Shown here: positions 7,309-45,993 of the stretch, one piece after another
Layout: every line of letters begins with the position of its first letter
Numbering within the stretch: position 1 is the first letter of the stretch
Source: an uncultured bacterium
GTDB taxonomy: Bacteria > Patescibacteriota > Microgenomatia > Levybacterales > UBA12049
Length of the DNA: 64,000 bases
NCBI GenBank assembly: GCA_963826535.1
Contig: CAWGXL010000010.1
Coordinates: forward strand, 298,814 to 362,813
Direction of reading: 5' to 3'
Notes under the pieces: model-generated
What the model was told of the DNA's origin: nothing
The model's database searches: none
Seen by the model: the letters and a program-made list of their open reading frames with translations, nothing else
Translations under genes and position numbers: made by a program

Positions 7309-8355
7309 CTATTCTTTTGACAATGGCACATTTTTTTCATTTGTCAATTCCTTTAACTTATTAAGATATTCTTTTACAATCCGTTTCACCTTATATATTT
7401 TAAGACCATACTTTTTACTCAATACTGCTATACTTTGCGGGTCTACATTATATAATCCTCTATGACTAACAAAAATATCTTTATCACGCTTTCCAGTTTC
7501 ACCTTGGCTAACAATGTCCAGTGCTTTAATCATATTTTCATATTGTTGTAAAATGTTAATTTCATCAATTGGACTTTCGGTAATTTCAGATGAGATTTTG
7601 TCATGAAATGTTTCGTCACCATCCTCCCCAATAGGATTATCCAAAGATACGACATTTCTCTCCATAAGAGTCAAAAGTTTCTTAACTTGTGATTCATTAA
7701 AGCCTGTCTCATCCGCAATCCCAGAAGCATTTATGGGAGTTGCACCAAAATGCTCTTTTTGAACGCGTTTTACTTTATTAATATCTTCATATTTATTATG
7801 TGGGAGACGAACAAGATCTACTTTTTCCATAATTCCTCTCTGAATACTATTCCGAATCCACCATGTAGCATATGTAGAAAATCTATATCCTTTTCTCCAT
7901 TTAAATTTATCAACAGCCTTAAAAAGGCCTTCATTTCCAGCCTGAATCAAATCCAGGAATTGAAATCGATCACCTATATAATTTTTCGCGATAAAAACAA
8001 CCAGACGTAAGTTGCTCTCTATAAGTTGATTTCGCGCTTTAATATTACCGGAATCTTTTTCTTTGGCAAGTTCAATTACGTCATTCGCAGTTAACAGCGA
8101 ATTTTTCCTGATATCACTAAGATAGATTCTTAAAATATCAAGATCCACATTTTTATCTTTACTGGCAACATAATCAAGAATTCTCTGATCGGGTTCTTTA
8201 AAGCTGGAAACTGCTTCTTGTGCCAAACTTTCAACCTTGTCCAACGATTTAGCATCAGGTTCATTTTCTGAGATCTCCAATTTCCCGACTTCTCGTTCTG
8301 ATTTATTCCCAGTTAAAGCAGTATTTTTTGCTCTTTCTCTTCTTTCTGCACTCAT
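7309..8355 (-). CDS. RNA polymerase sigma-70 family factor (RpoD-like)
   Basis: Region 2 motifs LRLVVFIAKNYIGDRFQFLDLIQAGNEGLFKAVDKFKWRKGYRFSTYATWWIRNSI, and region 4 is present. Start chosen at MSAERRE (ATG complement of 8353-8355) because the track's N-terminal 24 aa are hydrophobic junk. Confidence 0.85.
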   Translation of the reverse strand: MSAERRERAKNTALTGNKSEREVGKLEISENEPDAKSLDKVESLAQEAVSSFKEPDQRILDYVASKDKNVDLDILRIYLSDIRKNSLLTANDVIELAKEKDSGNIKARNQLIESNLRLVVFIAKNYIGDRFQFLDLIQAGNEGLFKAVDKFKWRKGYRFSTYATWWIRNSIQRGIMEKVDLVRLPHNKYEDINKVKRVQKEHFGATPINASGIADETGFNESQVKKLLTLMERNVVSLDNPIGEDGDETFHDKISSEITESPIDEINILQQYENMIKALDIVSQGETGKRDKDIFVSHRGLYNVDPQSIAVLSKKYGLKIYKVKRIVKEYLNKLKELTNEKNVPLSKE

Positions 8356-8473
8356 AATTGAATATCTATGAAAACAAAAACTATACAAAAAGTATAATAG
8401 TATACATTTCCAATAAAAATAATTCAATCAAAATTTTAGTTGACTTAATACAATTTGTTTGATAATATAAATC

Positions 8474-26761: not shown

Positions 26762-26835
26762 GGCCATTTAGCTCAGTTGGTTAGAGCGCTTCGTTCACAT
26801 CGAAGAGGCCGAAGGTCCGAATCCTTCAATGGCCA
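26762..26835 (+). tRNA. tRNA-Val(CAC): tRNA-Val (anticodon CAC)
   Basis: Hand-folded cloverleaf. Acceptor GGCCATT/AATGGCC (7 bp). D-stem GCTC/GAGC. Anticodon stem CTTCG/CGAAG with loop TTCACAT. T-stem GAAGG/CCTTC. Discriminator A73. CCA not encoded. The T-loop reads TCCGAAT (C at position 55). Confidence 0.85.
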
Positions 26836-26846
26836 CTATAATGCTT

Positions 26847-27641
26847 TTATGCTGCTTGTCTGTCTCGCTTTGAGAGAGGACTTAACATCCCCTGCTTTAA
26901 AAGCATTCTTTTCAGCCAATCTGATTTAGATTGAGCATCCTTTGTGGGTTGAATACCTTGTCTCCTAAGTCCGCTTTCAACCATTCTATTTGCCCTTAAC
27001 AAGCTATCATAGTGTCCGGGGATAAAAGGGGGCTTCAATTCAATTTCAATCACCTTTAATTTATCGCCCGCAAACCTTCTATATTCAGCTATCGATTGCT
27101 CCTTAAGTATTTCACATCTGTCCCCTGCAATCTCGACAATTGTCCCGTCAGACATTTGCACATCTCTCATCCATCTCTCTTTAATGAAAGTTGGTGAAAA
27201 AATTTGTATGTCAGGATTTACATTTAGCTGAATCAATGCACTTTCTATAGCTTTCGTCCTGCTTTTATCAGACTTAGGGTCAAATCGTATTTGGTTTTCT
27301 TGCATCGCAGAGAAGAATTGCATTTCATCATTTTCTTTAAGCGGTTCTTTATAACGCACTATGCTTCCCTCAGGGGCTTCAATCACCGTTACGCTTTTAT
27401 ATTTTGGTTTATTACCTGAGGTATTAACTTCTTCCGAAAAAACACAAAAACGGTTCGAGCTTTGGTATCTTGTGTCAGATACACCTCTGGCCCACGTAAT
27501 TTCAAGAGAACTTATTATTCTCTTAACTTTAGCACGGGAATCCAGCCCAATTCGTGCCTCAATCTCCACATGCCTTTTTTCTAGGTCAGATCCAGCATTC
27601 TCCCGATTTTCTTCTACACTTCTACCCATGTTTTTGTTCAA
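26847..27641 (-). CDS. Hypothetical protein with CYTH/triphosphate-tunnel-metalloenzyme-like signature
   Basis: N-terminal HVEIEARIG and C-terminal VIEIELKPP alternate-glutamate strands, plus IVEIAGD. Overlaps the upstream AAA+ gene by 20 nt. The fold assignment is an inference. Confidence 0.45.
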   Translation of the reverse strand: MNKNMGRSVEENRENAGSDLEKRHVEIEARIGLDSRAKVKRIISSLEITWARGVSDTRYQSSNRFCVFSEEVNTSGNKPKYKSVTVIEAPEGSIVRYKEPLKENDEMQFFSAMQENQIRFDPKSDKSRTKAIESALIQLNVNPDIQIFSPTFIKERWMRDVQMSDGTIVEIAGDRCEILKEQSIAEYRRFAGDKLKVIEIELKPPFIPGHYDSLLRANRMVESGLRRQGIQPTKDAQSKSDWLKRMLLKQGMLSPLSKRDRQAA

Positions 27642-28890
27642 ATATTATAATATTTCTTTTAATTTGCTCACCTGTTATTATAATTTGCGCGTTACCGTCA
27701 CCATTCCTTAGACGACGAGTCCGCACGGATGCTCGATAAAGAACATTCTTCAATTCTCGGGCATTTCTTGGCCAGTCATATTCTAAAAGTACCCGGTTTG
27801 CGTCTAAGCCCAAAGCATACTGCTTTCCGTCTGTACTCATTTTCTCTAAAAAATATTTTCCAAGTTCCCGAATATCCTCTGGACGCTCACGAAGAGGATC
27901 TAACTCAATAAATCCAGTTGTTAGTCGTTCAACTAGATCTTCATCCAATTCCAAATCATCTAGTCGTTTGTTTGTTGCTGTAACAACACGACCATTGAAA
28001 AAATCAGGTTTTTTTAAATTTTGGCTGCCCACCGAAATAATTTCTCCAGTATCAAAGAATGTTAAGAGTTTTGCCCGCACAGGTGGAGGCAGATGAGAAA
28101 CCTCATCTAGAAATATCGTACCACCATCTACTTGTCTAAATAAACCCCTACTGCTTCTAAATGCACTGGTAAAAGCTCCCTTTTCATGACCAAAAAGAAT
28201 ACTTTCAGCCATCTCGGGAGGAATTTGAGCGCTGTTAAATTTAATGTATGGTTTATTTCTTCTCTCTGAAAAAATATGTAAAAGCCTGGCTACAAGGTCT
28301 TTGCCTGTACCTGATTCTCCTTGTATTAGCACGGTTCCGCCTCCCTCTGCATAATCTTTAACCTTTTCAACAACCTCCTTACTACTCTCGCTCGCACAAA
28401 CCATCTCAATCCCGTTCCCCAATGGTATACGTTCTACCTCAGAATTATTTTTAGGCAGTTGCTCACTCCCAATTATATTATATGAGTAATCCTCATTAGG
28501 AGATAATTTCATTCTGCGATCAACAGTACCCCACGTCATTCCCATGCGTTCAGCAACCATTTTCTTACTATATCCCTGTCTGTTTAGCATATTCATAAAT
28601 GCATTAGATATAGCTTTAAAATTTGTTTGTTTATAATCAAAGACAATTGTAGCTTCACCACTTGCTCCCATTTCAATATGAATCGCTTTTCTATAAAGTG
28701 GTTCTTCTTGAGTATTTAAAACGACTTTCGTTCCTATGGTAGTTTGATTTGAGGATTGTTCTCGTCTATAACCACGAGCTTCTATATTGGGTGTTTCAGC
28801 CTCAGAAAGTCTTAGTAATGAAACTACATCTACCTGATGTTTATCGCCTTCTCGTATTGTTCTCAAATCTCTATAAACCTCATTTGCCAT
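27622..28890 (-). CDS. Sigma54-activator-like (bEBP/NtrC-type) AAA+ ATPase with an atypical architecture
   Basis: Walker A LIQGESGTGKDLVARLLH. GAFTSA instead of GAFTGA. Walker B GTIFLDEV. C-terminal DWPRNARELKNV. No receiver domain and no C-terminal Fis HTH. The 190-aa N-domain carries an HTH-like segment YSKKMVAERMGMTWGTVDRRM. Confidence 0.7.
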   Translation of the reverse strand: MANEVYRDLRTIREGDKHQVDVVSLLRLSEAETPNIEARGYRREQSSNQTTIGTKVVLNTQEEPLYRKAIHIEMGASGEATIVFDYKQTNFKAISNAFMNMLNRQGYSKKMVAERMGMTWGTVDRRMKLSPNEDYSYNIIGSEQLPKNNSEVERIPLGNGIEMVCASESSKEVVEKVKDYAEGGGTVLIQGESGTGKDLVARLLHIFSERRNKPYIKFNSAQIPPEMAESILFGHEKGAFTSAFRSSRGLFRQVDGGTIFLDEVSHLPPPVRAKLLTFFDTGEIISVGSQNLKKPDFFNGRVVTATNKRLDDLELDEDLVERLTTGFIELDPLRERPEDIRELGKYFLEKMSTDGKQYALGLDANRVLLEYDWPRNARELKNVLYRASVRTRRLRNGDGNAQIIITGEQIKRNIIIFEQKHG

Positions 28891-28982
28891 ATATAATTAT
28901 AAGATTATAGTAAGATAAATGTATTATATAGATAAGAATGTAATTTTCAAGTAGCAAGCTATATAATACAAATAACTAAATT

Positions 28983-30023
28983 ATGACAATTCTCTTTCTG
29001 GCACGACTTTTCTATCCTCACATTGGCGGGGTAGAGAAGCACGTCTTAGAAGTAAGCAAAAGATTAGTACAACTGGGCCATAGGGTTATTGTAGTTACTG
29101 AAAACCATAAACCCCCCTTGACCCATTTAGTTAATAGGATAGAGGGGATTGAAATAATCAGAATTAACGCGGGTAAAGATGACATGTTCAAAAAATTTAG
29201 AATTTGGAAAAGCTTATGGCAACTAAGAACGATAATAAAAGAAGCTGACATAATCCATTGTCACGACGTATTCTTTTGGTACCTACCCTTTCGCTTCCTT
29301 TACCCCCGTAAACCTGTTTATACAACCTTTCATGGTTATGAAAGCTACCCGGTTTCCATGAAAGCAATCATAATAAGAAAAATTTCTGAAAAATTATCCT
29401 GGGGTAATATTTGCATTGGAGACTTTATAAAAAAATGGTATGGTACAAAGTCTGATTATGTTTCATACGGGGCAGTAGATAGTGTCATTGCGAGGAGGCA
29501 CGACCAAGCAATCCTCAAAAATGACAAAAAATATTCAGCCCTTTTTATCGGCAGACTTGACGAGCAGACTGGTATATTAACCTATGTAAAAGCTCTTGAA
29601 ATACTTAAGATAAAATATCCAAACTTTGAATTACTAGTCGTAGGCGATGGGGAATATAAACGCCTAATTGAAAGACAAGTAAAAGTTTTAGGCTTCCAAA
29701 AAAATCCTGAGAAATATTTAAGACAATCTCATTTTGCATTTGTTTCCCGTTATTTATCTATTCTTGAAGCAATTGCCGCAAAAAGATTGGTTTTTGCCGT
29801 GTACGATAATCCAATTAAAGAAGACTATTTAAAAATGACACCATTTGCCAAGTTTATTATTATTGAAAATGATCCTGAAAGACTTGCAGAAAAAGTTAAA
29901 TACTTTTTAACCCATCCCGAAAAAGAAAAGGATTTAGTGAATGATGCTTATGATTGGGTGAAAAAACAGTCATGGGACACTTTGGTAAAATTATATTTGT
30001 CTCTTTGGAATAAACCTCTTTAA
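28983..30023 (+). CDS. Glycosyltransferase (GT4-like, GT-B fold)
   Basis: N-terminal YPHIGGVEKHVLEVSKRL typical of GT4. 346 aa. First gene of the glycan locus. Confidence 0.65.
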   Translation: MTILFLARLFYPHIGGVEKHVLEVSKRLVQLGHRVIVVTENHKPPLTHLVNRIEGIEIIRINAGKDDMFKKFRIWKSLWQLRTIIKEADIIHCHDVFFWYLPFRFLYPRKPVYTTFHGYESYPVSMKAIIIRKISEKLSWGNICIGDFIKKWYGTKSDYVSYGAVDSVIARRHDQAILKNDKKYSALFIGRLDEQTGILTYVKALEILKIKYPNFELLVVGDGEYKRLIERQVKVLGFQKNPEKYLRQSHFAFVSRYLSILEAIAAKRLVFAVYDNPIKEDYLKMTPFAKFIIIENDPERLAEKVKYFLTHPEKEKDLVNDAYDWVKKQSWDTLVKLYLSLWNKPL

Positions 30024-31739
30024 CCGGATTATTAATGCAATTCCTAATACAGTTGCAGATAAAGCACTTATCCATTTTGCAATTCTACGTTCTAAAGAAT
30101 CCGTAAATATTACTTCTACTTTATGTAATCCTTTACCTAATTTAAAAATAATAACACCAGGATAATGTTTATTTTTGTAATTAATTTGTGTTTCTATATT
30201 ATCTACCAACACTTTCCAGCCAGGAAAATAATATGTATTTTCCTTAAGTTCAACTTTTGATTTTGCAGAGATGATATATTCATGATTCGTAATTAAATGT
30301 GATAATTCAACAATTTCAGCATTTCCAGACAAAATTTCAATATGCTTGTTGGGTATTTTACCAATCCACGGTTTATATTTATCTACCCAAATAGGCGTAA
30401 GTGCATTAACTTGCCCAATATAATCGTCAAAAACCATTTGATTTCTGAGAACGGCGTCCGCTGTTTGCGGCATCGCTTTTCTATTTCCCCAATTTAAAAT
30501 CGTGTAAGCAATTGTTATAAAACACAGTAAAATAAAGAATTTTTTATTAGTATAAGTTTTAATAACAATTGCCGCAATTACTCCGATCACGATAATTACC
30601 TGGATTGATAATCGCCACGAAAACTGAAAATTGTTAATAATAGGAATAATATCCCAAAGTGGTTTTGTAAAAGATTGCATCATTAAAAATAAAATGAAGA
30701 ATATTATTATAGAACTTGTTAACACTATTTTCGCTTTCCCATGAACTTTTTTCTTTAAAAGAATAAAAATACCTATAAAAACAACTAGCCATTGTGTATA
30801 TCCAATGCTCGTATAAATTTCACCCTTATTTCCCTGAAATAATAAACCAAATAGATTTGGTGGATAGAAAAAATCGCGGAAAGAATGAAAAGATATCACA
30901 ACCTCTGTTCCATAAGCAGTGTACTTGCTTTCTATAAGAACAGGTATCCAATAAAAAGCAGTCAAAAGTAAACCATTTATAAAAGCAAAAATCATATGTA
31001 ATAGTATCTTAATATTTTTTTTCTTGTATCTTAACCACACACTAAATCCATAAATAATAAGAAAAGGGAAAGAAGCTAATGAGGTTACCTGATGCGAAAG
31101 GATCAACAAAGCAAAAAGAATAGAAGTATAAATAAAAAAAATAGAATACCTGGTTTCTACAAAACGCTTGGTAGTTAAAAATAAAAAGGGCAGAATAGCC
31201 ATTGAAACTAATTCGGCAATACTAACTCGAAAATGCAAATCAATTAGATGATATGGGGCAAATAGATAAAAAACAGCAGCCGCAAATCCTGATTTATCTC
31301 CGAATTCATCCTTCATCCATAAATACATACCTATCCCTGAAAGAATAAAGGAAATGGCAATGAGTATTTTCGCACTTGTGATAAATGAAAAGCCCAAAAC
31401 ATGAATAATTGAGATAAGATAATGAGATAATAAAAATGTAAATATAAAATCCGGACAGCCATAACCTGAGCATTGTTTCTCGATCCAGGCGGGAATTAAT
31501 TGTCCCTGTTTAAGATTTTCAAAAAATTGCATTGCGAATTTTACATGAAAATTAAGATCACCGCTCTCATAAGAACCAATTCGCAAAATACTAACAAGCG
31601 GTAATAAAGAAATAATTATTAATAAAAATAGAAAATTAATTCTTTTTTTAGGATAAACTTTAGTGTATAGTAACAAGCCTGCAATAAGAATTGCTGAAAT
31701 TATAAGATTCACGACGATCATTCTATAAGGATCAAGCAT
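29991..31739 (-). CDS. Polytopic membrane protein, GT-C-like (YfhO/ArnT/PMT-like) glycosyltransferase candidate
   Basis: 582 aa with at least 12 predicted TM helices and a C-terminal soluble domain. No precise family motif recognised. Confidence 0.5.
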   Translation of the reverse strand: MLDPYRMIVVNLIISAILIAGLLLYTKVYPKKRINFLFLLIIISLLPLVSILRIGSYESGDLNFHVKFAMQFFENLKQGQLIPAWIEKQCSGYGCPDFIFTFLLSHYLISIIHVLGFSFITSAKILIAISFILSGIGMYLWMKDEFGDKSGFAAAVFYLFAPYHLIDLHFRVSIAELVSMAILPFLFLTTKRFVETRYSIFFIYTSILFALLILSHQVTSLASFPFLIIYGFSVWLRYKKKNIKILLHMIFAFINGLLLTAFYWIPVLIESKYTAYGTEVVISFHSFRDFFYPPNLFGLLFQGNKGEIYTSIGYTQWLVVFIGIFILLKKKVHGKAKIVLTSSIIIFFILFLMMQSFTKPLWDIIPIINNFQFSWRLSIQVIIVIGVIAAIVIKTYTNKKFFILLCFITIAYTILNWGNRKAMPQTADAVLRNQMVFDDYIGQVNALTPIWVDKYKPWIGKIPNKHIEILSGNAEIVELSHLITNHEYIISAKSKVELKENTYYFPGWKVLVDNIETQINYKNKHYPGVIIFKLGKGLHKVEVIFTDSLERRIAKWISALSATVLGIALIIRLKRFIPKRQI

Positions 31740-31775
31740 ACTGATATAATATACATCAGTGAACTAAACAGCAAC

Positions 31776-32225
31776 ATGAAAATTTATTTTCTTAAAAAAG
31801 TAATTTTTTATATACTTTTCGCTATATGGATTTTCCTTGCCATTTTTAGTCTGTTTTATAATGCCGGAAAAACAATTTCGGAAATGAATGAATGGGCTTA
31901 CTTATCCGATAGCGAAAAAAGGCTTAAAATTTTTGGGGATTTGCATAACTTTTTCATTTTAATAAAAGACAATACAGAAGAAAAGTCTAATATATTTATT
32001 CTTTCTAAAGACATAAAAACTCCTTACCTTAGCATATATTATTTATATCCTCGAACTATTACTACCACAGATGATAAAAGCAAATTCATAAAAACAGCCC
32101 TTGCTCAAAAACATTTATATTTAGCGGTATATAAACAGGTTATTAAACTTGAAAACTATGAAAGGGTCGCTTCTTTTTCCTCGAAAACGAGCTCTGATTT
32201 TGGTTATCTTTATAAAAGAAAATGA
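31776..32225 (+). CDS. Hypothetical membrane-anchored protein
   Basis: 149 aa with an N-terminal TM helix. Confidence 0.4.
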   Translation: MKIYFLKKVIFYILFAIWIFLAIFSLFYNAGKTISEMNEWAYLSDSEKRLKIFGDLHNFFILIKDNTEEKSNIFILSKDIKTPYLSIYYLYPRTITTTDDKSKFIKTALAQKHLYLAVYKQVIKLENYERVASFSSKTSSDFGYLYKRK

Positions 32226-33532
32226 ATATTATTATTACATTGATTACTATTCTATTTATAACAGCCGTTGGTTTTGCCATTATTCGTGGCTTTAATTTAA
32301 TTTCAAATAAGGACAAGTTATTGAGTATTGCTTGCTCATATGGATTAGGCGTAGGTCTAATTTCAATGCAGTTGTATGTCTTTTCACGATTAAACTTCCC
32401 CTGGCACAAAGAACTATTAATTTATCCTTGGCTTATTTTAGTAGGAGTTATTTTATTCAGAAGTAGAAATCGAATAAATTTTAAGCTACCTTTATTTCCA
32501 AAATTCACTAACTTACAAATTTTCTTACTTTGTGGAATATTAGTTGCTTGTAGTTACACCATTTTTGAGGCTTTAATTCGTCCTGTTACAGTTTGGGACG
32601 GATGGGCTATTTGGCTTCTTAAATCTAAGATATTTTTTCTTGATGGCACAATTGATCCTGAAATGCTTAATTATATAAAATCCGACTACCCATTAATAAT
32701 TAGTCTTTTAGGAACATTTATTTATATTATATTAGGTAGGGTAGATGATACCGCAGTACTTATTACATCTACCGCTTTCTATTTAGCTCTAGCATTATTA
32801 TTTTTGTCAGCTGTGAAAAAAAAGTTTGGTTTTACTTATGCACTGTTATTTACGTTTCTCTTAGTTACTACGCAAAATTTTGTCAGACATGGTGGTAGGC
32901 TCGAAGCTGGTCTGGCAGATTTAGCACTGGGATATTATGCTTTTGCCTGTTTCATTTTATTAATAATTTATCTGAAAACAAGTAGTGGAAAACTGTTATT
33001 ATTACTTAATATATTTTTAGGAATTACTACACTCATTAAATTTGAAGGTGTAACAATAACTCTGCTTTTATCATGTTTTATGTTTTATCATATTACTAAA
33101 AATAGACTATATAGTCATTTCATATTTTTTCTTATTTGGTTTATACCCTTTACGGATTGGCAGACATATAAAAAAATTCACCTTGCAAGTGTAAATTATT
33201 TTACCGCTCATAAATTTGAATTTTCTATATCCAAAACACTTAACGTTTTTTCGGGGACATTTAAAGAATTAATAAATGTAAAAAGCTGGAACATGCTTTG
33301 GATAATCTATTTTTATACACTTTTTATTTTTAAAATAACTAAAAATAAAGAGCTTATGATATTAAATACTATAATTCTTTTTCAATTTGCTGTATATATA
33401 ATAATTTACATATTTACCTCTGGTAACTCTCCTGAAAGCTCGATAGAAAGGTTATTAATTCATATTGCGCCTCTCGCTTTATATTCCGTAGCTATATTAT
33501 TTAATAACAATCAACCTGAAAAGTCCCGCTAA
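32222..33532 (+). CDS. Polytopic membrane protein (GT-C-like / O-antigen-polymerase-like)
   Basis: 436 aa, almost entirely hydrophobic helices. Start overlaps the upstream stop by 4 nt. Confidence 0.45.
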   Translation: MNIIITLITILFITAVGFAIIRGFNLISNKDKLLSIACSYGLGVGLISMQLYVFSRLNFPWHKELLIYPWLILVGVILFRSRNRINFKLPLFPKFTNLQIFLLCGILVACSYTIFEALIRPVTVWDGWAIWLLKSKIFFLDGTIDPEMLNYIKSDYPLIISLLGTFIYIILGRVDDTAVLITSTAFYLALALLFLSAVKKKFGFTYALLFTFLLVTTQNFVRHGGRLEAGLADLALGYYAFACFILLIIYLKTSSGKLLLLLNIFLGITTLIKFEGVTITLLLSCFMFYHITKNRLYSHFIFFLIWFIPFTDWQTYKKIHLASVNYFTAHKFEFSISKTLNVFSGTFKELINVKSWNMLWIIYFYTLFIFKITKNKELMILNTIILFQFAVYIIIYIFTSGNSPESSIERLLIHIAPLALYSVAILFNNNQPEKSR

Positions 33533-35369
33533 ATGATTTTAATATTCCTGGAATAGCAAATTTTTTTACAACAATCAGTTTTTTCATCCTCTTATTTTTT
33601 TTATTAAAATTAATATTCCTTTCTATCAATGTCTCTATTTTATCCGCATTTTCATAGTTTTCAACAATAAAGACCTTTTTAGTTTCATTCGTATAAGGCA
33701 ATTTGATATACATGGGATTTTTTAAGTAATAGGACGATGGTTTTATAGCGGATTCAATATAACTGTTTTTTATAATATCCCGCGTATCAATATCATACAC
33801 TTTACAATCAGTATCATTACTATTTTGAATCTTTTTATCAGGTTGGAATATGAGTATCAGATACTTTTTTTTATTTTCGTAAACTGAATAATTACTAAAT
33901 ATCCATTTTGTTACAAGTGGATTTCTTGAAAAATTAGGAATATCATCAAGACTTAAAGCGCTTATTGAATCTATACTCAATATAATATATTTAGGTGGAG
34001 ACCCACTTAGTTTTTCTACCGCTTTTTTCTCAACAATAGAACTGGAGTACTCATAAAATTGTAGAGGAAGTGTATTAAATGTTGTGCTATATATATTAAG
34101 AAGATAACTGTCATAAGGATAAACTAAAACATTCTGTGGATTATCTTTTATAAGAGACTCAAAATATTGAAAATCATACTTCGTAAAAGAATAATCTCCG
34201 GTTAATTTATAAATATCAAAAAATGATATATTTTCTGTAGCCAAAGCAATTGACAATTTAAAATATTTTATCGAGATATTAGAATAATAATTTTCTTTAA
34301 AAGGTATCAATATATAAAAAATCAAAAAAATAAATATAATAATTAATCTTAATTTCTCCCGTAATATAAAATAAAAAAGTATAAATAAAATAATTAGACT
34401 TGGATATATGCCCATAATAATATGATCTTCATCTGGCCTGATAAATGCTGACTTTAATTGAATTAATGCTACTAGAGTTAGAAAAATAAAAGTCTGCTTA
34501 ATATTTTTCTTTATTCGTGTTTTCCTAATTGCATAAATCAATAATAACGTTAGGGCTATAGGAAACAAAAATAAAATAGTACTTCGATTAAATGACAAGG
34601 GTAAATTCATAACATATTGATAATTTTTAATGGTATCAAGCGAATAAACTAAATAATTAAAACTACCACTAATAAGGAAACTAATTATTAATTCAATAAA
34701 TATAATCAATCCAATTTGAATTACACTAATAAAAATTAATTTTCTAAGTAGTCTTTTGTTATTTTTCTCGTGATAAGTAGTATAAATCTTGTATATAATA
34801 AAAAGAACGGATATCATCAAACACGTAACTAAAATATCAAAACTATACATACCAAAAATTGGAGGTAAAATGAAAATTGCTAAGTTTTTCAAAGTAGGCG
34901 TATTTTTTAGAGGATCAAAGCGTAAAAGAAGTAAGCTATAAAAAAAAGTGAGTAGAATTCTAAAAAGAGTATTGCTATCATATGCAATTAGACCTATAAA
35001 AAAAAAGAGGTAACAAGTAAGAATAATTTGCTCATTCCGGTCCTTTGTTATCAATTTAATGATAAAATAAAGTAAAATAACACAAAATACTGTTATAAGA
35101 ATTGGAGCGTAAAGTACGGAAATATATGAACTTTGCCCAAATATTAATGCAGGGATAGCATAAATAAATTGAAACAATGGACCATATGTAAATATAAAAT
35201 CTCGCCCTGCAATATAACCATGTAATAGTCTTTCAACATTATCTGTTTGCCATGAAAAATCAAGAGTATTAGTAAGCAAAATAACATTACTTATTTGGCC
35301 ACCCAGTAATAAAAGTTTTAAAAAAACAGAAAGTGTAATGATAAAGATTAATATAAAGCCGACAATCAT
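33501..35369 (-). CDS. Polytopic membrane protein (GT-C-like)
   Basis: 622 aa. N-terminal half polytopic, C-terminal roughly 250 aa soluble. Confidence 0.45.
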   Translation of the reverse strand: MIVGFILIFIITLSVFLKLLLLGGQISNVILLTNTLDFSWQTDNVERLLHGYIAGRDFIFTYGPLFQFIYAIPALIFGQSSYISVLYAPILITVFCVILLYFIIKLITKDRNEQIILTCYLFFFIGLIAYDSNTLFRILLTFFYSLLLLRFDPLKNTPTLKNLAIFILPPIFGMYSFDILVTCLMISVLFIIYKIYTTYHEKNNKRLLRKLIFISVIQIGLIIFIELIISFLISGSFNYLVYSLDTIKNYQYVMNLPLSFNRSTILFLFPIALTLLLIYAIRKTRIKKNIKQTFIFLTLVALIQLKSAFIRPDEDHIIMGIYPSLIILFILFYFILREKLRLIIIFIFLIFYILIPFKENYYSNISIKYFKLSIALATENISFFDIYKLTGDYSFTKYDFQYFESLIKDNPQNVLVYPYDSYLLNIYSTTFNTLPLQFYEYSSSIVEKKAVEKLSGSPPKYIILSIDSISALSLDDIPNFSRNPLVTKWIFSNYSVYENKKKYLILIFQPDKKIQNSNDTDCKVYDIDTRDIIKNSYIESAIKPSSYYLKNPMYIKLPYTNETKKVFIVENYENADKIETLIERNINFNKKNKRMKKLIVVKKFAIPGILKSFSGTFQVDCY

Positions 35370-35444
35370 AATTAATAATAATGGGGCAACTAAATGTAAC
35401 TTTACTGTTTACATTTTATAGTTTTTCTAATAAGATTGCCATAT

Positions 35445-36508
35445 ATGGAAAAAACACTAATCGTTACAGGTGGTTGTGGCTTCATAGGTACCAACATCTC
35501 ACTATTAGCAAAAAAAAAGGTTACTCCGTAACAGTTTTTGACTCACTTATTCGTCCGCACACCGAAGAAAATGCTGAAATACTTAAAAAAGCAAATATAC
35601 AGATAATTAGAGGAGACGTAAGAAACTTGCATGATATTGAAAGACTACCAAAAAAAGCCACTGGTATTATACATCTCGCTGCAAATCCGGGAATACCCTG
35701 GTCAATCAAATGGCCGTCATATGATTTTGCAGCCAACGCTCTAGGCACACTTAATATACTTGAATTTTCAAGATTAAATCATAAAATTCCTATTATTTTT
35801 GCTTCTACAAACAAAATATATTCGGAAGAAATAAACATAATTCCCGTTACCGAACTAAAATCCCGTTATATATGGAACTTTAATAAAATAAATAAGAAAT
35901 CCACAAGGAGTACGATTTTAGAAGGGATAACGAAAAAAGGTGTCAATGAAAATTTTCCAATGGATAGTTCTGGAAAATTTCCCCACAGTCCATATGGCGT
36001 ATCAAAAGCCACGGGAGATCTTTATTGTCAGGAATATTTTCATATTTATGGTGTACCTACAGTTATAAATCGAATGTCATGCGTTTACGGTTTATATCAG
36101 AAAGGAGTTGAGGATCAAGGCTGGCTTGATTGGTTTGTGCAGGCGAAAATAAACAATTTACCGCTTAACATTTACGGTGATGGTAAGCAGGTTAGAGATA
36201 GCGTTTTTGGTACAGATATAGCGGAATTGTATCTTTTACAATTGGAAAACATTCGTAAAGTCAAAGGTCAGGTATTTAATATCGGCGGAGGTCTAAAAAA
36301 TACAATAAGTCTTATTGAGACAATAGATTATTTGAATAGTAAAGGAGGAAAAAAACTAGATCTTACTTTCAAACCTTGGCGACCTGCTGACCAAAAAGTT
36401 TATATCACGGATATTTCCAAAATTAAGAAACATCTAGGTTGGGAGCCCAGGGTAAGTGTATCTAAAGGACTTGATCAAATTTGGGCACAATACATGAGGA
36501 AATACTAA
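35445..36508 (+). CDS. NAD-dependent epimerase/dehydratase (extended SDR), frameshifted in an A8 run
   Basis: ATG at 35445 gives MEKTLIVTGGCGFIGTNISLLAKKK (Rossmann GxxGxxG) and stops at 35529-35531. The downstream frame continues GYSVTVFDSLIRP...YGVSKATGDLYC (YxxxK). The frame break is in the A-run at 35510-35518. Confidence 0.7.
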
Positions 36509-37209
36509 TTTGATTTTTTTAATCCATATAAATACCACCTTAAATAAAAACGCAAATTTCTAAACAATCTAAACTTTGAAACACCTTTCTCTCGGTCTTT
36601 CCATATCGTTGGAATCTCTGCTATTTTTAAATTCTTCTTATATGCTTTAACAGTTAATTCCAAAGGTAATTCAAATCCCTCCTCACTTTCAATAATAATG
36701 TCTTTGAGTATTGATCTTTTAAAACACTTGAATGCGTTTGTAGCATCGTGTGTCGGTAATCCAGTGAGTAATCTCAAGCTCTTACAGGCAATTAAGGATA
36801 ATAGTCCCTTTATCATTGGCCCGCCAACCCGTTTCCCATGTCTGCTGTATCGAGACGCACATACTAGGTCAAAACCATTATTAATTTCTAAAACCATTTT
36901 ATCTATGTCCCTAGGATCGTCGGAAAGATCTGCCATCATGATAGTAATTATAGAAGCTTTGGTATTATTAAAGCCATACTTGAGAGCTTTCAACATGCCT
37001 TTTCCATCTTTCGTAAAAAGCACATTAATATTTTTTATTTTTGTTTCAAGTTTTTTTATCTCCTTTAATGTTGGATCGTTTTTGTCTTGTAACACAATTG
37101 TTATTACATGTTCGGTTTTGACATATTTATGAATTTGCTCTAATACTTTTTCAATATTGTTCTGCTCGTAATAGGTTGGTAGTATAATATCAAGAAGAGC
37201 TTGTGTCAT
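36505..37209 (-). CDS. GT2 glycosyltransferase, polyprenol-phosphate mannose/glucose synthase-like (Dpm1/Ppm1-like)
   Basis: ILPTYYEQNNIEKVLEQIHKYV...LSDDPRDI... 234 aa single GT-A domain. Confidence 0.75.
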   Translation of the reverse strand: MTQALLDIILPTYYEQNNIEKVLEQIHKYVKTEHVITIVLQDKNDPTLKEIKKLETKIKNINVLFTKDGKGMLKALKYGFNNTKASIITIMMADLSDDPRDIDKMVLEINNGFDLVCASRYSRHGKRVGGPMIKGLLSLIACKSLRLLTGLPTHDATNAFKCFKRSILKDIIIESEEGFELPLELTVKAYKKNLKIAEIPTIWKDREKGVSKFRLFRNLRFYLRWYLYGLKKSN

Positions 37210-37258
37210 AATGCAAATTATATGTTAGGCTGAGTAATAATTCAATGAAGTAATTACC

Positions 37259-39802
37259 ATGAAGATATCTTTTGTTACCACAATATTTAATGAGGAAAAA
37301 ACAATAGAGAAGTTTCTTGACTCACTATTTTCGCAAACCCAATTACCGGATGAAATTATTATTGTAGATGGGGGAAGCACTGACCATACAATCGCTAAGC
37401 TGGAAAATCACAAAGAAAAATTTTTACTTTTAATTAAAAAAGGCAATAGATCGGTCGGTAGAAATGTAGCAATTAAGCACGCTAAAGGTGATATAATTGT
37501 CTGTTCCGATGCCGGAAATATATTGGATAAAAAATGGTTAGAGAATATCACAAAGCCTTTTAAAGATAAAAATAATGATGTCGTTGCAGGTTTCTACAAA
37601 GGAAAAGCGGAAAATATTTTACAAAAATGTTTAATTCCTTATGCCCTTGTAATGCCCGATAAAGTCGACCCCAATAACTTCCTCCCTTCCGCCCGTTCAA
37701 TGGCCTTTAAGAAATCTATCTGGAAAAAAATCGGTGGATTCCCGGAAAAATATAGTCATAATGAGGATTATGTTTTCGCCAATCAACTTAAAAAAATAAA
37801 TGCAAGTATTTTTTTCGCCAAAGACGCGATTGTGTATTGGTTCCCTAGAAACACGTTCAATGAAGCGTTTAATATGTTTTACCGTTTTGCATTAGGCGAC
37901 ATTGAAGCAAAAATATTCCGCTCCAAAGTATTACTGCTTTTCGCGCGTTATTTTCTCGGATTATATTTAATTTTTTTATCAATTTTATATCAATCAGTCA
38001 TAGGCGAGGTTATAATTCTTAGTATTTTTATAATTTATCTACTTTGGGCAATTCAGAAAAACTATAGATATGTACTAGATATTCGCGCCCTTTACTTACT
38101 TCCTGCAATTCAACTTACTTCAGACGCTGCAGTCATATTTGGATCTGTAGTTGGTTTGTTAAAAATAATAATACAGTTTAATTATCTTACTTTTATAAAA
38201 CAAAACAAATTATTATTTGTTATTCTGACTATATATATTTCATTTCTAGTATTCACCTTAAAATGGGGGATACCCAATCAAAATCACCCATTCCCCTACC
38301 ATATGGATGAATGGCATCAACTGCAGGCAGTAGCAAATACTTTCAGATTTGGAACACCTAATACTGTAGGATCAGCCAATGGAACCATGTTCCATTTTCT
38401 CTTTTCCGGCTTTTACCTCCTACCCTTCACATTACTTCAAATCATAAATCCCTTTGAACTTCAAATCGATAATTTTCAGATGCGGGAAAGAATATTTGAA
38501 ATTTTTAGATTTCAAACAATAATTTTTGGATCATTTTCAATATTAATTATCAATAAAATTGCGCAGTTGATTAATGCGTCAAAAAAATTGGTGATAACCT
38601 TGTTTACATTTTCTCCAATTTGGTTGATACTTAGCGGCTATTTTAAATATGATATTGCTCTCATTTTTTGGATTTTATTTTCATTATATTATATCGTTAA
38701 ATTTTCTAAATTACCTAGCAATCGAAATTTCATAATTGCCGCAATACCGGCAAGTTTAGCTATTGCAATAAAAGTAAGCGCTATTCCGCTATTACCGATC
38801 TATATTTTTTCATTTTTCCTATTTAGTCCATCTATTAGAAAAAACATCAAATTTTTATTTATAGGTGTTATTATTTTTATCTTTACACTTCTTTTGTTTG
38901 GCTTTCCTGACACATTATTTGGGAAAGGGAATTTATTACTATACCTTTTCGAGAACATTGTTCAAGGCCCGCAATCGTCATCAAATTTTATTTTAGGAAT
39001 GTCCCCATACACATTTCTGATCCTAAGACATTACCCTGTAATTTTTGGTCATGGTTTAATTTTCCTGTTTATCATTTCATGTATATTTTGGATCTATATA
39101 TGGTCAAAGAATGGATTTAGTAAATATAAACATGTGCTGTTTCTTTTCTTTTGTTTTTTAATTTTTTTTATTAGTATCCTGCCCCTAAAAATTTACGCAG
39201 GTGGAAACAGAAGTCTTGTTCTTTTACCATTTTTTACACTGCTTGTTTCTTTAACCTGGGGCGAATTCAAAATATGGCCAAGGCTAAAGCTCTTGGTATT
39301 AGTTATGTTAATTATCGCTCTAAGTTTACAGATATATGAATCGTCATTATGGGCAGCAATTAAGATTGGCAACAGCCCCCAAGAAGTATCATCGGAATGG
39401 ATACAAAAAAATATACCCAAAAATTCTACAATCGGTATAGAGAATGTCCCAATATATCAAAATATCCCGGATATAATTCAAAAAGAATTTTACTTTGATC
39501 AATATAATATAAATCAAGAAAAAAGATATAAATATCAAATAATCGATGCCGAGTCCGGATCATTACCACAATATATTGTAATTACTTCCGGGGATATTGA
39601 AAAAAAACTTGTTAAAGAATCACCAAAAAAGGACTTGTTAAATAGACTTAGTAAAGAAAAATATATAATATTGATTTCCTTTTCGCCCATTGCAATAAAA
39701 TATTTACCTTTAATAAATGATGTAGATTACTATTTCAGCTGGCTGGGAGCCCCTCCACTAACAACTACCATTTATGTATATCCAATCCTTGTGAAACAGT
39801 AA
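37259..39802 (+). CDS. GT2 glycosyltransferase domain fused to a large polytopic membrane domain
   Basis: N-terminus MKISFVTTIFNEEKTIEKFLDSLFSQTQLPDEIIIVDGGSTDHT (GT-A with DxD), followed by about 600 aa of TM helices. Confidence 0.7.
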   Translation: MKISFVTTIFNEEKTIEKFLDSLFSQTQLPDEIIIVDGGSTDHTIAKLENHKEKFLLLIKKGNRSVGRNVAIKHAKGDIIVCSDAGNILDKKWLENITKPFKDKNNDVVAGFYKGKAENILQKCLIPYALVMPDKVDPNNFLPSARSMAFKKSIWKKIGGFPEKYSHNEDYVFANQLKKINASIFFAKDAIVYWFPRNTFNEAFNMFYRFALGDIEAKIFRSKVLLLFARYFLGLYLIFLSILYQSVIGEVIILSIFIIYLLWAIQKNYRYVLDIRALYLLPAIQLTSDAAVIFGSVVGLLKIIIQFNYLTFIKQNKLLFVILTIYISFLVFTLKWGIPNQNHPFPYHMDEWHQLQAVANTFRFGTPNTVGSANGTMFHFLFSGFYLLPFTLLQIINPFELQIDNFQMRERIFEIFRFQTIIFGSFSILIINKIAQLINASKKLVITLFTFSPIWLILSGYFKYDIALIFWILFSLYYIVKFSKLPSNRNFIIAAIPASLAIAIKVSAIPLLPIYIFSFFLFSPSIRKNIKFLFIGVIIFIFTLLLFGFPDTLFGKGNLLLYLFENIVQGPQSSSNFILGMSPYTFLILRHYPVIFGHGLIFLFIISCIFWIYIWSKNGFSKYKHVLFLFFCFLIFFISILPLKIYAGGNRSLVLLPFFTLLVSLTWGEFKIWPRLKLLVLVMLIIALSLQIYESSLWAAIKIGNSPQEVSSEWIQKNIPKNSTIGIENVPIYQNIPDIIQKEFYFDQYNINQEKRYKYQIIDAESGSLPQYIVITSGDIEKKLVKESPKKDLLNRLSKEKYIILISFSPIAIKYLPLINDVDYYFSWLGAPPLTTTIYVYPILVKQ

Positions 39803-39883
39803 AAAGTTAATTACCCAAACAATGTTCCTCCTGAGTGAGGGGGAGTAGTATAAAACAACTCAACTGGTATAATATTAATAAAT

Positions 39884-41116
39884 ATGGGCTACACAAAAGA
39901 TGCCGTCAAAGGCATATCATGGATAGCGGTTCTTCGTATTTCAACTCGTGCAGTCGCCTTTCTCAAAACGGTTATTCTTGCCAGGATACTTGTGCCATCG
40001 CAGTTCGGTGCTTATGGAGTTGCGCTATTGGTTGTAGGGTTTCTGGAAGTAATGACTGAAACAGGTGTAAATGTACTTCTTATCCAGGAAAAAGAATCAG
40101 ATAAATATATAAATTCAGCATGGTTTGTTTCTATTATTCGGGGAATTATTATCGCACTAATTATTATTTTATTTACGCCTTTTATCGCTGATTTTTTCCA
40201 TTCGCCCGAATCCAAAATTTTATTGTATACGATGAGTATGGTTCCATTTCTCCGTGGATTTATTAACCCATCAATTGTAAATTTTCAAAAGCAACTTAAC
40301 TTCAACCTTGAATTTCGGTATAGATTTTCTATTTTTCTACTGGACTCAATTGTAGCGATCATACTCACATTAATAACACAAGATCCAATAGGTATAGTGT
40401 ACGGTATGATTGCCGGAGTTATACTGGAAGTATTACTTTCATATTTTATTGTAAAACCTATACCCCACTTTACCTTAAATTCTGATTACATCTCTAAAAT
40501 TCTTCATAGAGGCAAGTGGGTTACTGCTAGCGGAATTTTTAATTATTTATTTCACAACGCGGATAATATTGTAGTCGGCAGACTACTTGGAACATCTTCA
40601 CTTGGTATTTATCAAATAGCTTATTCACTTTCAATTCTCCCCATTACAGAAATTGCCGATGTCTTCTCCCGGGTCACATTTCCTGTATACACCAAAATTG
40701 CCGGAGACAAAGCTCGTTTGCGCAAAGCATTTATTAAAACACAGCTGGTAATAGCCTCTCTTACAATTCCATTAGGTATTATTCTATTTATATTCCCTAC
40801 AGAAATTGTTTCTTTAATCTTGGGAGAGAAGTGGCTGGGTGCAGTAGTTATCCTCCCAACTCTGGCAGTTTTTGGTGTAATTAGAGCTACTTCCGGATCT
40901 GCCTCAGCACTTTTTTTAGCTGTTGGCAAACAAGAGTATGTTACCGCTGCTACTTTAGTTAGCACATTAGGTCTTATAATTCCACTTATCCCGCTGGTTA
41001 TGAAATATGGCATTTATGGAGCTGCATTATCAGCATTAATAGGTTCTATTGCCGCTGTCCCTGTTTTCGTATATTATGCATTGAAAGTATTAAATACAAA
41101 AGATGAAAAGCGTTGA
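39884..41116 (+). CDS. Wzx-like oligosaccharide flippase (MOP superfamily)
   Basis: N-terminus KGISWIAVLRISTRAVAFLKTVILARILVPSQFGAYGVALLVVGF. 410 aa, about 12 TM helices. Confidence 0.75.
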   Translation: MGYTKDAVKGISWIAVLRISTRAVAFLKTVILARILVPSQFGAYGVALLVVGFLEVMTETGVNVLLIQEKESDKYINSAWFVSIIRGIIIALIIILFTPFIADFFHSPESKILLYTMSMVPFLRGFINPSIVNFQKQLNFNLEFRYRFSIFLLDSIVAIILTLITQDPIGIVYGMIAGVILEVLLSYFIVKPIPHFTLNSDYISKILHRGKWVTASGIFNYLFHNADNIVVGRLLGTSSLGIYQIAYSLSILPITEIADVFSRVTFPVYTKIAGDKARLRKAFIKTQLVIASLTIPLGIILFIFPTEIVSLILGEKWLGAVVILPTLAVFGVIRATSGSASALFLAVGKQEYVTAATLVSTLGLIIPLIPLVMKYGIYGAALSALIGSIAAVPVFVYYALKVLNTKDEKR

Positions 41117-41933
41117 TTCAAAAATTTACGACAAAGATTATTATCTGCATTCATGTTTGGGTTTTGAAGAATTTAAAAAATTTAAAGGTAAAAGGGTCCA
41201 TCTTCTAGGTGAAAAGTTTCTAGATCGAATTTCTATAATGCCTGGAATGAAAGTCCTAGACATTGGCTGCGGTAGAGGAGATCTGGCAATTGAATGTGCA
41301 AGAAGAGGAGCAAAAGCAACAGGTATAGATTACTCGGAAGACGGAATAGAAATTGCAAAGAGCTCATTGAAAAAGCAAAAATTGAATATTCAGAAAAATG
41401 TAAGTTTCTTTAAAATGGATTCAAAGAAACTGGAATTTGAAATCAATTCCTTTGATATAATTACATCTTATGACGTGTTTGAACATCTTTATAAAGATGA
41501 ACTGGAAATAGTAATGAATGAAATCTCCCGGGTTTTAAAGCCGAAAGGAATTCTATTAGTTCATACAGAAACTAATAAAATCTATTTAGATTTCACTCAT
41601 CATATTTGGTCTTACCCTTTAGATCAATTATTAATAAAAATTAACAAATTAATAACAAAAAAAGAATATCCCGGTTTACCGAAAGACCCACGGAACGAAC
41701 TTCATAAAAAGCAACATGTAAATGAACCAACCTACTTTTATCTAAGAAATCTTTTTATACGGCATTTATTTTCTGGCAAAATAATATCGCTTATTCCTAA
41801 GAAGCAAATATTTAGTTGGAAAGACAAAATCCATAATATACTTATTTCCCTTTATCCTATTTCTGGTTTCTTTCCTTTTCATCTTCTTTTTGCACATGAT
41901 TATATTTGCATTATGAAAAACAGTAAAAAATAA
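41103..41933 (+). CDS. Class I SAM-dependent methyltransferase
   Basis: Motif I VLDIGCGRGDLAIECARRGAKATGIDYS. Confidence 0.75.
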   Translation: MKSVDSKIYDKDYYLHSCLGFEEFKKFKGKRVHLLGEKFLDRISIMPGMKVLDIGCGRGDLAIECARRGAKATGIDYSEDGIEIAKSSLKKQKLNIQKNVSFFKMDSKKLEFEINSFDIITSYDVFEHLYKDELEIVMNEISRVLKPKGILLVHTETNKIYLDFTHHIWSYPLDQLLIKINKLITKKEYPGLPKDPRNELHKKQHVNEPTYFYLRNLFIRHLFSGKIISLIPKKQIFSWKDKIHNILISLYPISGFFPFHLLFAHDYICIMKNSKK

Positions 41934-43064: not shown

Positions 43065-43119
43065 AGTTAAAATTTTAATATTGTACTAGTATTAAGTATT
43101 AATCAGGAGTTATATAAAT

Positions 43120-43392: not shown

Positions 43393-43442
43393 ACAAACAA
43401 CCCCTTGAAAATTACAGATGACTCTGCTATCTTACAAGCAAC

Positions 43443-45082: not shown

Positions 45083-45808
45083 TTAAAGTAAGTAATTCAA
45101 CGGAGAATTTTCCTGAGAGGCTAGGAGTAGTTCTTCCTCCAACCTTCTCACATTCTTAATAATAAATAATCTGCCAATCTTCCCCAAGTATCCCTGTTTT
45201 TCCAATTTTTTCATCTCCAACGAAGTAGTTTCACGCGTAACTCCAACCATTGTTGCGATATCACGATGAGTAAGTGGTACCTGAACTACCATATCATTTC
45301 CTTGTTGCTCGCCAAATTTTTTAGCACAAATTAAAAGTGTCGTCGCTACTTTTATATACGCATTGCTAAAAATCAAATATTCAATTCTGGTGAGTACTCC
45401 GTCAAATTTAACTATAATTCTACTCGTCAGTTCAAACAAAACATCCGGATTTGCTTTAATAAAAGCAATAAATTGATCTTGTGGAGATTTCCATAATTCA
45501 AGTTGAGTAATTGATTCTAAGAAATAAGGGTTACTAATAATATTTATTCCGTAGGTAAAAGGAAAAAAGTCTCCCGGCTTTAAAATCATTAGTGTCAATT
45601 CCTCACCCTTTTCCGAAATCCTAAATACACGCAGGTATCCGCTTTTTAAATAAAACACACTTGCTGAACTATCTTGAGCATGAAGTATTAAATCTCTATT
45701 TTTATATCGCAATAACGGAAATATTTTGAAGAATAAATCAAGTTTTGAAAGGCTAACTGAATAGGTTTTTTCTAACATAAAACTATAAGCCATCTTATAG
45801 GGAGGCAA
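45083..45808 (-). CDS. Crp/Fnr-family transcriptional regulator
   Basis: cNMP-binding fold FYLKSGYLRVFRISEKGEELTLMILKPGDFF. HTH LTHRDIATMVGVTRETTSLEMKKLEKQGYL. Confidence 0.8.
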   Translation of the reverse strand: MPPYKMAYSFMLEKTYSVSLSKLDLFFKIFPLLRYKNRDLILHAQDSSASVFYLKSGYLRVFRISEKGEELTLMILKPGDFFPFTYGINIISNPYFLESITQLELWKSPQDQFIAFIKANPDVLFELTSRIIVKFDGVLTRIEYLIFSNAYIKVATTLLICAKKFGEQQGNDMVVQVPLTHRDIATMVGVTRETTSLEMKKLEKQGYLGKIGRLFIIKNVRRLEEELLLASQENSPLNYLL

Positions 45809-45978: not shown

Positions 45979-45993
45979 TTTAAATTTTGTTTT

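Follow-up and report, generated by a model that had tools for sequence, protein, structure and literature searches.

Overlapping genes for an orphan NtrC-family AAA+ protein and a predicted triphosphate tunnel-fold protein in Candidatus Levybacteria: a probable lineage-specific adjacency

Background

Do two overlapping genes in a compact genome, one for an ATPase of a transcription-activator family and the other for a protein resembling triphosphate-processing enzymes, constitute a functional module? The question is raised by a locus in a 64-kb stretch of DNA (the window, which is the sequence examined here) from Candidatus Levybacteria, a member of the candidate phyla radiation (CPR/Patescibacteria) with a reduced genome. 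On its minus strand the window encodes an AAA+ protein of the NtrC/bacterial enhancer-binding protein (bEBP) family and, overlapping the end of that gene, a divergent protein with the predicted fold of the triphosphate tunnel metalloenzymes (TTM), to which the CYTH enzymes belong. A preliminary description of the locus had read the pair as a bEBP-TTM module. We report that neither protein represents a novel type of system and that the pairing is no system; the adjacency of the two genes is probably a lineage-specific insertion and not a conserved functional module.

Results and discussion

Gene layout and start sites

The two genes, the alternative form of one of them and the conserved border next to them are as follows (basis of the assignment within brackets):

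26847 to 27629, minus strand: divergent protein with predicted TTM/CYTH fold, 260 aa from ATG 27629 (gene call, AlphaFold2 (AF2), Foldseek and family alignment)
26847 to 27641, minus strand: alternative 264-aa form of the TTM-like open reading frame (ORF), TTG start at 27641 (ORF list)
27622 to 28890, minus strand: NtrC/bEBP-family AAA+ ATPase, apparently an orphan, 422 aa (ORF list, Pfam, NCBIfam and PDB search)
26762 to 26836, plus strand: tRNA-Val(CAC), the conserved edge of a variable slot (tRNA call and synteny)

Both minus-strand ORFs, and all the motifs quoted for them in the preliminary description, are present in the translations. The TTM-like protein had been given as 264 aa with an overlap of 20 nt; that ORF exists from the TTG codon, but the start is most likely ATG 27629, giving 260 aa, because both the public gene call (260 aa) and the homologue at the syntenic position in L007, the genome nearest to that of the window, begin with 'MG'. 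From this ATG the gene overlaps the stop codon of the AAA+ gene by 8 nt (ATGGGTAG). The codon usage and the GC content at third codon positions (GC3) of both genes are indistinguishable from those of host genes in the window; on this composition recent horizontal transfer was rejected, and the AAA+ gene is thus no recent import from a GC-rich donor.

The genomic slot and its content in related genomes

The pair occupies a variable slot that is flanked on one side by the tRNA-Val gene beside genes for S26 signal peptidase, ParB, L27 and L21, and on the other side by a GT4 glycosyltransferase gene. For comparison, 80 loci (L007-L086) were collected around ParB homologues with 62-88% identity, all from Levybacteria/Levyibacteriota or Patescibacteria metagenome-assembled genomes (MAGs), and the ATPase was used as phmmer query against every ORF of the 86 loci that were available in all. 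Only the window's own copy was recovered, and the ATPase is thus found in 0 of the 80 Levybacteria loci. For the reverse comparison, a survey of gene neighbourhoods from the side of the ATPase family that had been suggested as a check, the databases searched contain no close relative. The TTM-like family, in turn, is represented across the 80 ParB-anchored loci in the window and in L007 only, where L007 is the closest relative (88% ParB identity).

The gene order in the window is S26, tRNA-Val, TTM-like (minus), AAA+ (minus) and GT4, and in L007 it is S26, tRNA-Val, TTM-like (minus), HflX (plus), MsrA, MsrB and GT4; the DNA similarity between the two ends at 26842 and returns at 28961. The next closest relative, L008, has MsrA-MsrB immediately after tRNA-Val, and neither TTM nor HflX. 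The L003 locus, which is syntenic with the window, comprises genes for a PTPS-related membrane protein, GT4, MsrB, MsrA, HflX, the TTM-like protein, tRNA-Val, S26 peptidase, ParB, L27, L21, FtsW and IleRS, with no AAA+ gene in the locus. In L002, HflX is divergent from the TTM-like gene, while two NUDIX genes lie upstream of the TTM-like gene and in the same orientation in L004 and L005, which represent a different lineage. The L001 locus is too short for its gene context to be judged. Hence, the TTM-like gene is seen in five further contexts (L002, L003, L004, L005 and L007, of which three are syntenic Levybacteria loci), and a bEBP gene was not found in any of them.

The slot after tRNA-Val is hypervariable in Levybacteria. 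Because of this variability, and because the relatives are without the ATPase while the TTM-like gene is present in syntenic loci, we conclude that the AAA+ gene is a genome-specific arrival beside a TTM-like gene that was already there. The adjacency of the two genes is, in our judgement, probably lineage specific, and the counts above (0/5 other TTM contexts, 0/80 Levybacteria loci) speak against the module that had been proposed. A literature search gave no link between CYTH proteins and sigma54 activators or bEBPs. The locus provides the lesson that overlapping neighbours in one compact genome need not be conserved functional coupling.

Some further observations concern the slot itself. 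Between tRNA-Val and the conserved pair of genes for GT4 and a large membrane protein (window 26837-28960) the number of genes varies from none to more than seven across the 80 loci, and these are often GT2 genes. ORFs of 250-280 aa at the equivalent site (L010, L012, L014-L018 and others) were considered as diverged TTM proteins and rejected, since they are glycosyltransferases of the GT2 type. A search of the window for signs of island integration at tRNA-Val detected no repeated copy of the 3' end of this tRNA. The TTM-like and hflX genes form a divergent pair in all three other Levybacteria-type contexts (L002 1882-4014, L003 8813-10873 and L007 11578-13836), and the NUDIX-NUDIX-TTM-like stretch of L004 is located at 4509-6130.

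The AAA+ protein: domains and relatives

The features assigned within the AAA+ gene are:

27715 to 28407, minus strand: AAA+ sigma54-activator core plus lid, aa 162-392 (Pfam, PDB search and conservation comparison)
28162 to 28179, minus strand: L1-loop motif GAFTSA, aa 238-243 (translation and comparison with relatives)
28507 to 28605, minus strand: putative Fis-type helix-turn-helix (HTH), aa 96-128, N-terminal to the AAA+ core (HTH_8 match and NtrC4 alignment)

The protein had been described as having a complete bEBP AAA+ core, and the assignment of the core and its motifs was confirmed: in Pfam, Sigma54_activat (PF00158) matches aa 164-323 of the 422-aa protein (E=2.8e-44; cut-off 20.2 bits) and AAA_lid_14 matches aa 334-389, with 30 residues remaining after the lid. 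The motifs GESGTGKD (aa 191-198), GAFTSA (aa 238-243), GTIFLDEV (aa 257-264) and WPRNARELKN (aa 373-382) are in place, and Walker A (GESGTGK), Walker B (DE), the arginine finger R322 and sensor II (R378) are all kept. Sequence matches to the core in the PDB are NtrC1, NtrC4, NifA, FleQ and PspF (E 1e-47 to 1e-39), and the NCBIfam matches are all generic and restricted to the core. The Pfam search also bears out that the protein is without a known sensor domain (no recognisable receiver (REC), GAF or PAS) and without a C-terminal HTH_8. The claim of a 190-aa N-terminal domain with an HTH-like segment holds for the segment but not for the length, the region before the core being approximately 160 aa. 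The sole HTH signal is a weak HTH_8 match in Pfam (aa 99-128, E=0.016), and in the PDB search aa 96-128 (NAFMNMLNRQGYSKKMVAERMGMTWGTVDRRMK) align to the Fis-type HTH at the C-terminus of NtrC4 from Aquifex.

The ATPase thus resembles NtrC1 and NtrC4 of Aquifex aeolicus, NifA and PspF in its core (approximately 40-47% identity), in Walker A and B, in the F and T of the L1 loop and in R322 and R378, whereas it differs from them by having no receiver, GAF or PAS domain, the HTH placed before the core, GAFTSA, and the substitutions R316D, Q272R, V325T and G375R. LevR-type activators of the Firmicutes also have an HTH N-terminal to a sigma54-interaction AAA+ domain, which is followed by PRD and EIIA domains. 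The order of HTH and AAA+ is the same as in the ATPase, but LevR differs by its PRD and EIIA domains and by its HTH type, and no sequence similarity between the two was seen outside the AAA+ core.

In a set of 5.8 billion proteins the nearest relatives of the AAA+ protein show 47% identity, over the core only; they belong to other phyla and have the usual NtrC/NifA-type architecture with REC or GAF. No closer relative was present in JGI metagenome contigs or in viral contigs. The AAA+ protein is, therefore, an orphan without an orthologue in the databases searched. Within the bEBP family it stands as a member with rearranged domains and, as far as can be judged from these domains, it is probably a DNA-binding, ATP-hydrolysing regulator.

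Two candidate origins were rejected. The 'phage' tblastn matches to the ATPase are generic bEBPs with approximately 40% identity over the core, mostly located in mislabelled bacterial contigs, and no relative came from a viral contig; a phage origin was dismissed. Membership in a defence system was likewise discarded, as the PADLOC RtcR_PspF matches do not extend beyond the AAA+ core, a CARF domain is missing and the TTM-like protein is unmatched.

Residue conservation in the AAA+ core

When compared with its 119 nearest bEBP relatives, the AAA+ protein matches 60 of the 70 columns in which their conservation is 90% or higher and is changed in the other ten. Four columns that are 100% conserved in the 119 relatives differ (Q272R, R316D, V325T and G375R). 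In the FRxDLxxRL segment the first Arg is replaced by Asp316, at a position that we take to be equivalent to R162 of PspF. R322 in the same segment is kept and represents the principal arginine finger, corresponding to R299 in NtrC1 and R168 in PspF (PMC7175178).

The loss of the invariant Arg at position 316 is more unusual than the GAFTSA sequence. Among the 120 best AAA+ matches, two proteins of canonical architecture (P0048 and P0070) have GAFTSA and 15 proteins have GAFTDA, and the carriers of the two variants include canonical REC/GAF-AAA-HTH_8 proteins. Moreover, Francke et al. report a substitution at position 5 of the GAFTGA loop, to D, in the functional activator FlgR (PMC3162934). 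Since GAFTSA occurs in canonical bEBPs and the FlgR substitution is functional, GAFTSA is a tolerated natural variant and offers no evidence of sigma54 independence; the alteration of GAFTGA pointed out in the preliminary description is real without being a mark of such independence. A literature search on GAFTSA returned nothing relevant.

Promoter region and the question of sigma54

Upstream of the AAA+ gene two features were predicted:

28923 to 28950, minus strand: sigma70-type promoter-like site, TTGAAA-16-TATAAT, 11/12 positions, 33 nt upstream of the AAA+ start
28913 to 28977, no strand assigned: AT-rich inverted repeat with 19-nt arms, 84% complementary, which brackets the sigma70-like site (repeat search)

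The sigma70-like site is the probable promoter of a two-gene transcript, and a sigma70 gene is present in the window at 7309..8427. The inverted repeat is a possible operator, although it may be due to chance.

Whether the ATPase acts through sigma54 depends on the genome having rpoN. No Sigma54 domains were detected in the 20 large window ORFs scanned, and a search of all ORFs encoded in the window and in the 86 loci gave no RpoN box (the related Levybacteria loci amount to 1.2 Mb). The -24/-12 consensus (TGGCAC-N5-TTGC, at most two mismatches) is present 47 times in the window compared to 35+/-6 expected, and its core, TGGC-N8-TGC, seven times compared to 3.9+/-2.1 expected. The consensus is not enriched in the window, nor is there a sigma54 promoter upstream of a gene in the correct orientation in the window, the best matches being intragenic or misoriented. 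A literature search on sigma54/rpoN in CPR gave nothing relevant.

It is possible, if somewhat unlikely, that the ATPase is an ordinary sigma54-dependent enhancer-binding protein (EBP), with rpoN and the target promoters located elsewhere in the 494-kb contig and with the TTM gene as an unrelated neighbour. As would be expected of such a protein, the L1 loop has its F and T, and Walker A and B, the arginine finger and sensor II are intact; the GAFTSA and GAFTDA variants of canonical proteins and the functional FlgR with D at position 5 agree with it, and there are activators without a C-terminal HTH, such as FlgR of Helicobacter and CtcC of Chlamydia. In addition, EBPs and sigma54 generally co-occur according to a survey of KEGG genomes (PMC12316311). 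This is countered by the missing RpoN box and Sigma54 domain in the window and in the 1.2 Mb of related loci, by a consensus that is neither enriched nor properly placed upstream of a gene, by the four changed residues that are invariant in the 119 relatives, R316D among them, and by the lack of an orthologue.

Some proteins with a bEBP-family AAA+ domain work without sigma54, i.e. TyrR, DhaR, HupR and the NtrC of Caulobacter (PMC3162934; bioRxiv 10.1101/2023.06.06.543975), and would provide a possible model for the ATPase if the genome lacks rpoN. In these proteins the GAFTGA loop is lost or disrupted, whereas the ATPase keeps G-A-F-T-x-A. The ATPase shows that bEBP-type AAA+ proteins occur, rarely and rearranged, in Levybacteria, and it raises the question of what role a bEBP may have where the genome is reduced and sigma54 may be missing; the ATPase would gain in interest only if rpoN is truly absent.

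We consider it improbable that a transferred bEBP gene is decaying here, or has already lost its function, with the C-terminal HTH gone and residues of the catalytic interface drifting. A singleton without this HTH, which departs from its relatives at 10 of 70 highly conserved positions of the core, among them the invariant Arg that presumably corresponds to R162 of PspF, could be understood in this way. On the other hand, the 422-codon ORF is intact with 60 of the 70 conserved positions kept, the host-like codon usage and GC3 speak for long residence under selection, and a strong promoter-like site lies upstream.

The TTM-like protein: predicted fold and active site

One feature was assigned within this gene:

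27552 to 27566, minus strand: strand-1 motif E22-x-E24-x-R26, the predicted counterpart of the CYTH ExExK motif (family alignment)

The motifs HVEIEARIG, IVEIAGD and VIEIELK, on which a CYTH/TTM fold had been suggested, are present in the translation, and the structure prediction and Foldseek comparison with CYTH proteins that had been recommended support the suggestion. The single-sequence AF2 model of the 260-aa protein was unusable (predicted local distance difference test (pLDDT) 34.8). With a five-sequence alignment the pLDDT increased to 82.7, with a predicted TM-score (pTM) of 0.81 and 4/5 models in agreement; in this model eight long beta-strands form a tunnel barrel, and helices are present in addition. 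Against the PDB, Foldseek gave 29 matches at E<=1e-3, all of which are CYTH/TTM enzymes or the same-fold Med18/Med20; the former are HpAC1 (Hippeastrum, 6yp4), E. coli YgiF (5a60), PH1819 (Pyrococcus, 2een), TTM1 of Arabidopsis (7z67) and Pct1 (4pn0/4pn1). The Foldseek probability is 1.00 to 6yp4, 5a60, 2een and 7z67, with TM-scores of 0.45-0.60, and chains of the mimivirus RNA triphosphatase (2qy2, 2qze and 3bgy) come next (E 7e-3 to 2e-2). Against BFVD there were 25 matches at E<=1e-3, and the named ones are all phage or giant-virus CYTH proteins or capping-enzyme mRNA 5'-triphosphatases, while several others are unnamed; to the viral CYTH and triphosphatase models the Foldseek probability is likewise 1.00.

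The residues that are conserved in the family point in the same direction. Ten family columns are invariant, and six of these are charged strand residues (R60, R92, K94, E111, D170 and E195). Strand 1 has [ED]x[ED]x[RK] in 6/6 members (ExExK in L007), strand 6 has [KR]x[KR] in 6/6 and strand 8 has ExE in 5/6. Along each strand, hydrophobic positions come between the conserved charged ones, a pattern that a tunnel with a polar lining would be expected to give. The conserved residues correspond to the catalytic set of the TTM enzymes (ExEx[R/K], R, RxK, E, [KR]x[KR], D and ExE), with which CYTH enzymes and Cet1-type RNA triphosphatases bind metal and triphosphate. The hhalign match to the YgiF CYTH domain is weak (E=0.017, probability 2.7%; 39% over 44 columns in strands 6-8) and pairs the motifs FIKERW/FYREKW, VEIAGD/IEIALD and IEIE/LELE.

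From these residues and the model we conclude that, at the level of predicted fold and active site, the 260-aa protein is a member of the TTM superfamily, while by sequence it is no member of Pfam CYTH. It shares with the CYTH/TTM enzymes the N-terminal ExEx[K/R], basic residues in strands 2, 4 and 6, and D plus ExE in strands 7-8. It differs from them by having no PF01928 match, by being longer with a C-terminal helical extension of approximately 60 aa ending in ...AA, and by TM-scores of 0.45-0.60. The protein probably binds triphosphate and a divalent metal, and judged from the modelled site it is most likely a divalent-cation-dependent triphosphatase with tripolyphosphate, NTP and the 5'-ppp end of RNA as candidate substrates. 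The Cet1/Pct1-type and giant-virus mRNA 5'-triphosphatases (4pn0/4pn1, 2qy2; BFVD) have the same barrel fold, approximately 260 aa and two glutamate-rich strands; they are, however, enzymes of eukaryotic and viral capping, and the 260-aa protein has no sequence similarity to them, nor does a capping apparatus occur here.

There is little reason to favour the idea that the 260-aa protein is a barrel without enzyme activity, i.e. a scaffold resembling Med18/Med20. The Med18/Med20 chains do match the CYTH enzymes in Foldseek scores, but they are subunits of the eukaryotic Mediator, and what remains conserved at a family identity of 25-31% are exactly those charged strand positions, acidic or basic, with which the tunnel of TTM enzymes is lined.

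The TTM-like family

Sequence searches with the 260-aa protein gave no match in Pfam, NCBIfam, PADLOC, PHROGs or the PDB, and neither CYTH (PF01928) nor related Pfam models matched at E<=10 any of the five family members scanned (all except that of L007). A word-indexed search of the 5.8 billion proteins recovered the protein itself alone, with one match added by the profile version. Four relatives with 26-30% identity (E=2e-17 to 7e-5) were identified by an HMMER scan of 1.84 billion cluster representatives, and the sixth member is that of the closest related genome, L007. The members are approximately 240-290 aa and have a mutual identity of 25-31%; between the window and L007 the TTM-like proteins are 25% identical, yet ParB is 88% and GT4 57% identical. 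The family is small and fast evolving, found in the variable slot of a Levybacteria subclade. If confirmed, the 260-aa protein would represent a small branch of the TTM superfamily, restricted to CPR, which current sequence libraries miss and which was revealed only by structure prediction from a shallow alignment.

The C-terminal ends of these proteins are also unusual. Four of the six members (that of the window, at 26847-26855, and those of L001, L002 and L007) terminate in [R/K/Q]-A-A, and among the ORFs of 150 aa or more in all sequence examined, 1027 in number, only five end in AA, four of which belong to the TTM-like family. By analogy, this end suggests an ssrA/ClpX-type C-terminal degron and regulated proteolysis.

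Possible function of the two genes

In this genome a single orphan AAA+ gene takes the place of the hflX, msrA and msrB genes that precede the TTM-like gene in the closest relative, and in our proposed scheme one sigma70-driven transcript would cover both genes of the pair. The AAA+ protein with its HTH would probably oligomerise, bind DNA and hydrolyse ATP, with an altered catalytic interface, and its partner would be sigma54, if present, or another protein. The TTM-like protein would be translationally coupled to the AAA+ gene via the 8-nt stop/start overlap and would probably hydrolyse triphosphate, with E22, E24, E195 and E197 as metal site and R26, R60, R92, K94, K150 and R152 as phosphate clamp. 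The coupling of the two is one of position and is confined to this genome.

A functional link between the ATPase and the TTM-like protein is conceivable but unlikely, and the comparative data lend it no support. PspF-type activators have no sensor and are controlled in trans, with PspA acting on PspF. A genuine two-component module might by the same token consist of a TTM protein that makes or destroys a phosphorylated signal for the ATPase, or that regulates the sensor-less ATPase in trans as PspA does PspF; the 8-nt overlap, the single upstream sigma70 promoter-like site and the absence of a recognisable sensor in the ATPase are all compatible with it. Still, we regard such a module as quite improbable: the two genes do not co-occur in the five other TTM contexts or in the 80 Levybacteria loci, synteny with L003 and L007 shows that the TTM-like gene is older than the ATPase at the site, gene overlaps are common in compact genomes, and the literature searched gave no link between CYTH proteins and sigma54 activators. 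Finally, that a sigma54-lacking CPR bacterium has given a sensor-less NtrC-type ATPase with a displaced HTH a new sigma54-independent job, in which it controls or is controlled by a co-translated, fast-evolving and apparently degron-tagged TTM enzyme in a hypervariable slot beside a tRNA gene, possibly as a conflict or stress system and not in housekeeping, is very unlikely.

Other features in the window and in related records

A Crp/Fnr-type regulator (cNMP_binding + HTH_Crp_2), mentioned in the preliminary description as a cNMP-type regulator elsewhere in the window, is present at 45083..45808; it is located 17 kb from the AAA+/TTM-like pair, with no evidence of a link to it. Its gene is divergent from that of a histidine kinase (HisKA + HATPase_c, with a weak, sub-threshold GAF-like match at the N-terminus; window 45083-47100). 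At 48716-51815 an ORF of 545 aa comes after the gene of a MoxR-type AAA+ protein, which matches bpMoxR of the MoxR-vWA-beta-propeller ternary systems (E=2e-31). The region 30000-44000 has a GC content of 0.27-0.33 compared to approximately 0.38 elsewhere in the window and carries genes for glycosyltransferases, an epimerase/dehydratase, a polysaccharide flippase-like protein and large membrane proteins; this region, next to the variable slot, is a cluster of surface-glycan genes.

Among the public records, Levybacteria-type MAGs with ParB-L27-L21 (66-88% ParB identity; L007, L008, L010, L014-L016 and others) are often labelled 'uncultured Gammaproteobacteria bacterium', and a few further ones are labelled Limnocylindrales, Sulfotelmatobacter or Saccharimonadales; these are evidently mislabelled submissions.

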